From a virus (Duplodnaviria; Heunggongvirae; Uroviricota; Caudoviricetes), in IMG/VR virus record IMGVR_UViG_2731957841_000003: 29,158 bases of DNA; one strand, written 5' to 3'. Positions 15,860 to 16,013 of this stretch are shown in pieces. Position 1 is the stretch's first letter. Each line of letters starts with the position of its first letter. The position numbers and the translations under genes are program-made. The notes below the pieces were generated by a model. It did not search any database and had not been told where the DNA came from. It saw only the letters and a program-made list of their open reading frames with translations.

Positions 15860-15934
15860 TGGAGCGGGTAGCGGGAATCGAACCCGCATCATCAGCTTGG
15901 AAGGCTGAGGTAATAGCCATTATACGATACCCGC
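15860..15934 (-). tRNA. glyT: tRNA-Gly (anticodon UCC), glyT-like
   Basis: Cloverleaf built by hand: acceptor GCGGGTA/TACCCGC, anticodon stem TCAGC/GCTGA with loop CUUCCAA, T-arm GCGGG-TTCGATT-CCCGC, encoded CCA. Near-identical to E. coli glyT as I recall it, with one compensatory acceptor-stem base-pair change. Confidence 0.8.
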
Positions 15935-15937
15935 ATA

Positions 15938-16013
15938 TGGTGCCGACTACCGGAATCGAACTGGTGACCTACTGATTACAAGTCAGTTGCTCTACCTACT
16001 GAGCTAAGTCGGC
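15938..16013 (-). tRNA. thrU: tRNA-Thr (anticodon UGU), thrU-like
   Basis: Acceptor GCCGACT/AGTCGGC, D-arm GCTC-AGTAGGTA-GAGC, anticodon stem ACTGA/TCAGT with loop CUUGUAA, T-loop TTCGATT, encoded CCA; 3 nt from the tRNA-Gly gene. Confidence 0.8.

Follow-up and report, generated by a model that had tools for sequence, protein, structure and literature searches.

A tRNA-Thr and tRNA-Gly cassette in a Rac-like prophage

The 29,158-nucleotide stretch of DNA analyzed here (IMG/VR record IMGVR_UViG_2731957841_000003; hereafter the window) is, as judged from sequence comparison, a full-length Rac-like lambdoid prophage. Between its Q-like late antiterminator gene and its lysis genes lies a compact cassette of two tRNA genes, both on the minus strand: a tRNA-Thr(UGU) gene at 15938-16013 and a tRNA-Gly(UCC) gene at 15860-15934, separated by the 3-nt spacer TAT (15935-15937 on the same strand, read from the sequence). 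ARAGORN, Rfam and alignment with Escherichia coli K-12 thrU and glyT agree on the two genes, each of which encodes its CCA end. According to ARAGORN, these are exactly the two tRNA genes present in the window, with the anticodons tgt and tcc at position 34. The Rfam model RF00005, for which the gathering score is 29, gave 73.8 bits for the Thr gene (E = 1e-14) and 65.6 bits for the Gly gene (E = 2e-12); since these values are far above chance, neither gene is pseudogene-like. Neither ARAGORN nor Rfam indicated broken stems, a lost anticodon loop or a missing 3' end in either gene, and the only non-standard pairs are those shared with host thrU and glyT. An earlier note on this DNA had described two complete, CCA-encoding tRNA genes 3 nt apart; its factual statements all stand, although it did not give the strand and overlooked existing public annotation of the pair.

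The Q-like gene (16366-16908, minus strand, 180 amino acids) was assigned through DUF1133 (1e-107), PHROG 753 ("anti-termination protein Q-like") and Phage_antitermQ, to which it scores 27.1 bits, just above the curated cutoff of 26 bits. On the other side of the tRNAs, a phage-21-type holin open reading frame (ORF; 14868-15176; Pfam Phage_holin_2_1, 1e-34) is followed by a YdfR-like ORF, lysozyme, Rz and then trkG, all on the minus strand. The holin homologue essD, in the related prophage of NZ_CP065970, starts at the equivalent of 15083. The pair had been placed between Q and the lysis cassette, which the Pfam and PHROG assignments bear out: the Q-like gene lies upstream, and the holin, lysozyme and Rz genes lie downstream. 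With the Q-like gene, the tRNAs and the holin on one strand, the arrangement is that of a lambdoid late-region tRNA cassette. Over ~15 kb aligned, comprising the Q-lysis-trkG, recET-int and replication segments, the window is 96-99% identical to the NZ_CP065970 prophage, which is annotated with intR, xisR, ralR, recET, kilR, sieB, racR, ydaSTUV, trkG, lysis and tail genes.

Descent from host thrU and glyT

For comparison with the host, the thrU-tyrU-glyT-thrT-tufB region was fetched from E. coli K-12 MG1655. On alignment, the phage Thr gene is identical to thrU at 76 of 76 positions and clearly unlike thrT, and the Gly gene matches glyT at 73 of 75 positions, the only differences being C6>T and G67>A (linear position 66). 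Positions 6 and 67 pair with each other, and U6:A67 replaces the host pair C6:G67. Relative to the host tufB operon, in which the order is thrU-tyrU-glyT-thrT, the cassette retains an identical mature Thr, a Gly that is one compensated pair apart and the same gene order, but it lacks tyrU and thrT, and its interval is 3 nt rather than the 209 nt of the host. The likeness to thrU and glyT, the absence of tyrU (Thr-TAT-Gly in the phage) and the compensatory nature of the change at 6:67 had all been proposed in the earlier note and are upheld by the alignment.

The surroundings of the genes tell a different story from their bodies. The flanks, promoter and leader of the cassette are unrelated to those of the tufB operon, and alignment to K-12 revealed no flank homology to the operon past 1-2 nt beside each gene, and the idea that this phage captured the genes recently was accordingly rejected. 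A single deletion in the host operon, joining the T after thrU to the AT before glyT, would be enough to yield the TAT spacer. A match of this kind is expected by chance in about 1 in 16 cases (given four possible breakpoints), and the junction is therefore only a weak hint.

A donor species with a chromosomal U6:A67 glyT was also considered and rejected. An exact-pattern scan of 185,579 species, one genome each, returned only two matches, neither of them an enterobacterial glyT: the same prophage in Escherichia ruysiae, and a chromosomal Tyr-Gly-Leu array with no encoded CCA in a Spirochaetota metagenome-assembled genome. The U6:A67 allele was therefore not imported from the glyT of another enterobacterium. 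The spirochaetal match (OZ245054, 4290-4363) is in itself curious, as its tRNA-Gly(UCC) body is identical to that of the window at 72 of 72 positions; conservation, transfer and contamination are all possible explanations for identity across phyla.

Taken at the level of the tRNA genes, descent of the pair from enterobacterial thrU and glyT is well supported by the alignments and by the host-identical Gly of about half of the sister copies. Probably, the two genes were captured together and subsequently compacted.

Predicted promoter, leader hairpin and terminators

All promoter and terminator assignments given here are predictions. A promoter scan identified a putative sigma-70 promoter on the minus strand at 16077-16104, with the -35 element TTGCGA (16104-16099), a 16-nt spacer and the -10 element TATCAT (16082-16077), from which transcription of the cassette would start at ~16070. 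The combination of TTGnnn, a 16-nt spacer and TAnnAT recurs in 16 of 17 distinct leader families, the remaining family scoring best as ATTGCA-17-TATTAT, and the -10 hexamer ends 6-8 nt before the leader hairpin. Every two-tRNA array has this same upstream architecture despite otherwise diverged sequence. In the four-tRNA arrays described below, an equivalent promoter (TTGCAA, 17-nt spacer, TATTAT) stands directly before the first tRNA.

The leader hairpin itself spans 53 nt (16017-16069, minus strand) and ends 3 nt before tRNA-Thr. It consists of a 6-bp helix, a tandem GA/GA, a 4-5-bp helix and a variable loop, with a minimum free energy of about -19 to -21 kcal/mol (-18.9 to -20.6). The arms, GGTTCY-GA-RGGG and CCYY-GA-RGAACC, are kept in 17 distinct families whose loops are unrelated. 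When the arms are aligned, 91% of cells are paired; shifting the partner by 1-3 columns lowers this to 24-68%. Four pairs have undergone double-sided changes, among them U6-A/C6-G, for which U-G intermediates exist. In IMG/VR, ~82 of 100 sequences fitting the arm pattern stand directly 5' of a thrU-type Thr gene. No Rfam family matched the hairpin. Because a T-run is missing, the hairpin does not qualify as a terminator.

Between the cassette and the holin, a terminator scan detected a strong intrinsic-terminator-like hairpin, AACCGCCATATCTGGCGGTT, followed by T8 (15468-15497, minus strand), which is likely the end of an autonomous tRNA transcript. Of 85 distinct related regions, 63 have a comparable terminator no more than 500 nt downstream of Gly; its stem is conserved and its loops vary. 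Together, the predicted promoter, the leader hairpin, the two tRNAs and the predicted terminator look like an autonomous unit with a moron-like layout.

The true late promoter probably lies elsewhere, near the Q-like gene. Just downstream of that gene, the terminator scan found a candidate tR', an intrinsic-terminator-like hairpin with a T-run (16245-16286, minus strand). A weak candidate late promoter, read from the sequence with low confidence and unflagged by the promoter scan, overlaps the Q stop codon at 16341-16369 on the same strand (-35 TTGATT, 16369-16364; -10 TTCAAT, 16346-16341). The two are read as pR' and tR' because their geometry matches that of the annotated Q21, pR' and tR' of phage 21. 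A role of the cassette promoter and hairpin as Q-dependent late promoter and terminator was rejected: the hairpin has no T-run, the location of the module is independent of Q, and a T-run terminator directly follows the Q-like gene. Moreover, the promoter is attributed to the tRNAs and not to Q, because the module is found downstream of stx2f in phage phi467, after a methylase gene and in duplicate in prophage SerU-LTIIb, and with four different Q-type genes.

The interval of 360 nt that separates Gly from the terminator contains no ORF of at least 60 amino acids, and neither it nor the leader matched a known RNA family at the Rfam threshold. A weak full-length match to the prophage small RNA (sRNA) family STnc100 covers 15468-15663 (minus strand; 22 bits against a gathering score of 47). 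In JLK-2012, a true STnc100 (107 bits) lies further downstream in the same late-region interval. The segment at 15468-15663 may be an sRNA that is co-transcribed with the tRNAs.

Spread and constraint among sister cassettes

The cassette is far from unique. A scan of IMG/VR for the Thr-Gly junction returned at least 120 contigs. Of 5,426 complete E. coli genomes, 155 contain the 1.3-kb region surrounding the tRNAs, and in these PGAP already labels tRNA-Thr and tRNA-Gly. The 154-nt pair matched 6,579 places, partial matches included, in 5,421 complete E. coli genomes; ~1,150 of these, an upper estimate, lie beyond the universal tufB operon. The U6:A67 type, recognizable by a best copy with an identity of 99% or more, accounts for 312 of these records. 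The pair is annotated in vB_EcoS-683R6, Stx2f phage phi467, LT-IIb prophage SerU-LTIIb, PhiR47_1, JLK-2012 and others, and in several phages it adjoins accessory genes or toxins.

Among the matches listed, to which the counts of spacers, arrays and Gly variants given here refer, the spacer is TAT in 118 of 122 copies, from which a single origin of the Thr-Gly junction is deduced. Thr-Gly stands alone in 54 copies. It is preceded by an ileX-like Met(CAU) and Lys(UUU) in 33 copies and by Met(CAU) and Arg(UCU) in 14, minor variants accounting for the remaining copies. Since about half of the arrays carry tRNAs from other host loci (ileX-like, Arg/Lys) ahead of the pair, the array is a composite. 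The Gly gene is host-identical (C6:G67) in 53 of 122 copies and of the U6:A67 type in 54 of the 122 classified, 39 copies having the exact sequence of the window. Another 4 copies carry the wobble intermediate U6:G67. A second compensated Gly pair, A49:U65, is also present.

Constraint on the tRNAs was assessed with 14 leader-family representatives. At the positions left free by the search pattern, mean identity was 97% for Thr and 95% for Gly; the final 23 nt of Thr and the initial 18 nt of Gly, save position 6, were dictated by the pattern, and the comparison does not bear on variation there. With the same alignment scheme and representatives, the 120-nt flanks were 68% (upstream) and 67% (downstream) identical. 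The frequent variants are Thr D-loop changes and the compensated Gly 6:67 pair; stem-breaking changes are rare and mostly singletons, and only a few sister copies are decaying through loss of CCA, an anticodon-loop insertion or broken stems. The contrast in identity between tRNAs and flanks, with common variants that fall in loops or are compensatory, supports maintenance of the tRNAs under purifying selection.

The earlier note had proposed capture from the host operon followed by selection. Descent from thrU and glyT and maintenance under selection both stand, but capture by this phage does not: the junction has a single origin, it occurs in many lambdoid phages with different Q genes, the flanks are unrelated and the arrays are composite. 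In our reading, the cassette has since moved among lambdoid phages as a module, and this phage inherited it.

Several sister loci show that the tRNA bodies can change identity or recombine. In SerU-LTIIb, in which the cassette is duplicated, a thrU-type body at 1122-1194 has its anticodon changed from UGU to UCU and is annotated as tRNA-Arg. Anticodon changes in a thrU-type body occur at two IMG/VR loci as well, and a change from UGU to UUU is also seen. In the four-tRNA arrays, the second tRNA has one body with various anticodons, namely Lys UUU (at least 33), Arg UCU (14), Leu UAA, Phe AAA and an unassignable loop. At the cleavage site of AriB, the nuclease of the PARIS defense system, the anticodon stem of this tRNA (G39 U40 U41) is unlike that of host tRNA-Lys. 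The tRNA-Thr of JLK-2012 (3995-4070) is a chimera in which the first 25 nt are of the phage-21 type and the rest is of the thrU type, with extra changes at 42-43, which reveals recombination within the gene between two late-region Thr lineages.

Comparison with known phage tRNA genes

The closest relatives are the annotated pairs of phi467 (LN997803), SerU-LTIIb (KU052038), vB_EcoS-683R6 (ON470595), PhiR47_1 and RefSeq E. coli genomes, which share the pair and the TAT junction at 97-99% identity and have the same orientation upstream of a holin as in the window. Of these, vB_EcoS-683R6, like the NZ_CP065970 prophage, also shares the Rac-like context of Q-like gene, tRNAs, holin and trkG. The others depart from the window in individual ways: in phi467, the Gly is the host-identical C6:G67 form and the cassette follows stx2f; in SerU-LTIIb, the cassette is duplicated and one Thr has the anticodon UCU; and in PhiR47_1, ileX-like and Lys(UUU) tRNAs stand ahead of the pair. 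No functional analysis of the Thr-Gly pair was found in the literature searched.

Phage 21 (OL657228) offers the best-annotated parallel. Its late order, Q21, pR', QBE, tR', tRNA-Asn, tRNA-Thr(UGU) and S21, is represented also by SfI, Sf6 and ST64T, and resembles that of the window in placing tRNAs, including Thr(UGU), between a late promoter/terminator and a phage-21-type holin. According to the annotation, the phage 21 tRNAs are co-transcribed with the late genes, as those of the window would also be. The two systems differ further in the Thr gene, for which 50 of 76 columns are invariant in a four-way alignment and which has G39 and G41 in phage 21. In addition, the phage 21 Thr is paired with Asn instead of Gly, and it abuts tR', without a promoter of its own or a non-terminator leader hairpin.

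Phages of the 933W type reportedly carry ileZ-argN-argO tRNA genes upstream of stx. Like the window, this type has rare-codon tRNAs heading a lambdoid late operon, and the four-tRNA sister arrays likewise start with an ileX-like tRNA followed by, e.g., Arg(UCU). Unlike the 933W type, the window has Thr and Gly only, without decoders of AUA and AGA despite the highest over-representation of these codons. Finally, tRNA-Thr(UGU) is also encoded by the E. coli phage T5, the tRNA-Lys, tRNA-Thr and tRNA-Asn of which neutralize PARIS (PMC11464382, PMC12409363). In the T5 tRNAs, substitutions lie at the site of AriB cleavage or adjacent to it; the Thr of the window has no such substitution.

Codon supply as the favored function

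The sequence evidence favors, with moderate confidence, a role of the two-tRNA cassette in supplying minor isoacceptors for codons that are overused by the phage. In K-12, thrU and glyT are the only genes known to encode the UGU and UCC isoacceptors, which are both scarce. Codon counts for the window ORFs (6,914 codons) were compared with those for 42 annotated K-12 genes (14,748 codons). ACA occurs at 18.8 per 1000 in the window and 5.4 per 1000 in K-12 (3.5x; Fisher p = 4e-19), and GGA at 14.3 and 6.0 per 1000, respectively (2.4x; p = 4e-9). By absolute excess among the 61 codons, ACA ranks 2nd and GGA 7th; the ten leading codons further include AAT, ATA, AGA and AAA, the decoders of which are the Asn, Ile2, Arg(UCU) and Lys(UUU) tRNAs of sister arrays or phage 21. 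The enrichment of both cognate codons supports codon supply; the bias, however, extends to A-ending rare codons in general. A similar case was made for phage SfI, whose Thr(UGU) gene, likewise downstream of Q, was connected with a preference for ACA (17.3% versus 7.1%; PMC3636060).

For such a supply, the cassette's own sigma-70 promoter (16104-16077) would give rise to a precursor that starts with the 53-nt hairpin and ends at the terminator hairpin (15497-15478). During lytic growth, Q-modified RNA polymerase from the late promoter beside the Q gene would also read through the cassette. RNase P would cut both 5' ends, which would be enough to separate genes 3 nt apart, and exonucleases would trim the 3' ends back to the encoded CCA; processing by these enzymes is established for polycistronic tRNA precursors of E. 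coli. The identity elements for the host threonyl- and glycyl-tRNA synthetases presumably lie at positions unchanged in the phage tRNAs, so that charging should be normal. The additional Thr would read ACA (plus ACG/ACU) and the additional Gly GGA/GGG, and the extra supply may speed the synthesis of late proteins and of AT-rich accessory genes. The sequence data establish that the genes are intact, how closely they match the host genes, where they lie, how they are conserved and how codon use is biased; use of the promoter, processing and any influence on translation or burst size are inferred.

A number of points weigh against codon supply. AGA, AGG and AUA are even more over-represented (5-7.5x), yet the phage has no tRNA for them, and the codon argument is correlative and unspecific, the bias being a general one. 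The host baseline of 42 genes comes from one 50-kb K-12 region, and the ORF set of the window is approximate, since its members were picked from a program-made ORF list with a related annotated prophage as guide. What keeps the genes so close to those of the host could be conversion by the chromosomal copies and not functional selection. The choice of tRNAs also has a competing rationale, because the same species are targets of tRNA-inactivating enzymes: AriB cuts Thr(UGU), Asn(GUU) and Lys(UUU), and FaRel2 acts preferentially on Gly and Thr (PMC12409363, PMC11559606). A narrower translational role, in which tRNA-Gly(UCC) would be tied to a GGGAAAG tail-chaperone frameshift site, was rejected, as the motif has three matches, which is chance level, and none is at the 3' end of a G-like ORF.

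Alternative functions

A role in counter-defense is unlikely, but is the alternative that fares best. Here, the cassette would replenish tRNAs inactivated by immune effectors of the host or of competitors, such as the PARIS nuclease AriB, a toxSAS that pyrophosphorylates the CCA end, or GNAT toxins that acetylate Gly-tRNAGly, so that late translation could continue. The species targeted do recur in lambdoid arrays, as Asn-Thr in phage 21, Lys-Thr-Gly in at least 33 contigs and Asn-Thr-Gly in JLK-2012. The toxSAS FaRel2 recognizes the acceptor stem through pairs 1, 2, 4 and 5; tRNA-Gly, above all Gly2 (enriched 11- to 12-fold), and tRNA-Thr are favored by it (PMC11559606), and the one difference in the Gly of the window lies in this same stem, the region read by toxSAS and GNAT toxins. 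Similarly, T5 tRNAs substituted at positions 39 and 41 escape AriB (PMC12409363), and at these positions, known from the escape substitutions of T5 tRNA-Lys, the phage-21-type Thr(UGU) is unlike the host. The window, however, carries no escape substitution at the AriB positions (39-41) or the FaRel2 pairs (1, 2, 4, 5) of either tRNA. Its Thr equals thrU, including the cleavage site U36AAUC↓A41, and AriB should cut it like the host tRNA; its Gly keeps the FaRel2 determinants G1:C72, C2:G71, G4:C69 and G5:C68, among which 6:67 does not count. An escape role is therefore unsupported for this copy, and only a dosage effect is possible, since a copy identical to the target helps only by dosage. Furthermore, about half of the sister cassettes listed have a host-identical Gly, and FaRel2 originates from Coprobacillus, which is not an enterobacterium. 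As a separate observation, the tRNAs of phage 21 (3592-3747) could be anti-PARIS variants, given their changes at the positions that confer AriB resistance on T5 tRNA-Lys (PMC12409363).

More doubtful is the proposal that the cassette acts as a lysogenic-conversion moron, expressed mainly in the lysogen from its own promoter and aiding the host in decoding ACA and GGA in AT-rich acquired genes. The genes to benefit, in place of the phage late genes, would include trkG in this prophage and, among sister phages, stx2f or LT-IIb. The promoter-gene-terminator layout with its strong predicted terminator before the holin fits this proposal, as do the accessory genes or toxins beside the cassette in several phages and the richness of the window trkG in GGA (26.5 per 1000) and ACA (20.4 per 1000). 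The late-operon position, on the other hand, guarantees strong expression when late genes are made, and the lysogen promoter is a predicted one; the proposal is also compatible with codon supply. Similarly doubtful is a constitutive tRNA moron with a defense role, which would buffer lysogen or phage against effectors that inactivate tRNA-Thr(UGU) or tRNA-Gly, with U6:A67 as an escape or tuning variant and the leader as a new cis-element for precursor processing or stability.

Least probable of all is a neutral passenger or recombination scar, i.e., a module-exchange boundary whose likeness to the host is kept by gene conversion: the chimeric Thr of JLK-2012 demonstrates crossovers inside these genes and a few copies are visibly decaying, but intact, high-scoring copies persist across many lineages, compensatory changes with wobble intermediates have occurred at two stem pairs, and the promoter and leader are conserved though they have no host counterpart from which to be converted.

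Other features of the prophage

A full-length RalA antitoxin sRNA (27424-27602, minus strand; Rfam, 225 bits) provides a further Rac-like marker, and opposite to it an 86-amino-acid ORF on the plus strand (27346-27606) occupies the position of ralR in the related prophage. At 19567-21675 (minus strand), two adjacent uncharacterized ORFs of 363 and 333 amino acids form a candidate defense or toxin module. Only sub-threshold Pfam similarities were obtained for them, to the HEPN/RES N-terminal domain (RES-NTD; 22.2 bits) and to GNAT acetyltransferase (19.9 bits), and nothing matched in PADLOC, NCBIfam or PDB sequences. The site is variable, a sister prophage having an ATP-dependent nuclease and a Dcm methyltransferase there, and 205 complete E. 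coli genomes contain the ORF pair, labelled "hypothetical protein (x2)". The idea that the window encodes a tRNA-targeting defense gene to which the tRNAs are the answer was rejected on account of the sub-threshold hits and because the site is occupied by other genes in sister prophages that share the tRNAs. Beside trkG, at 9732-11448 (minus strand), a TET-associated glycosyltransferase-like ORF (Pfam TAGT) overlaps a ParB_N/type II methyltransferase-like ORF, which suggests a late-region DNA-modification module.

Significance

The cassette is real, ordinary and already known. It belongs to the long-known class of lambdoid late-operon tRNAs represented by phage 21, 933W and SfI, and the exact Thr-Gly pair is already labelled in RefSeq genomes and several phage records. 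In the literature searched, no description was found of the single origin and spread of Thr-TAT-Gly, of its own promoter with the tandem-GA leader, or of the U6:A67/U6:G67/C6:G67 series. These three points are small additions and do not amount to a new kind of system. What they contribute is the picture of one widespread, single-origin mobile cassette, with strongly constrained tRNAs, a terminator, a conserved promoter and a conserved leader hairpin that had gone undescribed. The tRNAs that these arrays repeatedly contain are also substrates of recently described tRNA-targeting defense systems, and owing to this overlap such prophages offer a cheap test ground for distinguishing codon supply from counter-defense. 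At the positions examined for AriB and FaRel2, the copy in the window does not differ from the host tRNAs, which speaks in favor of supply.

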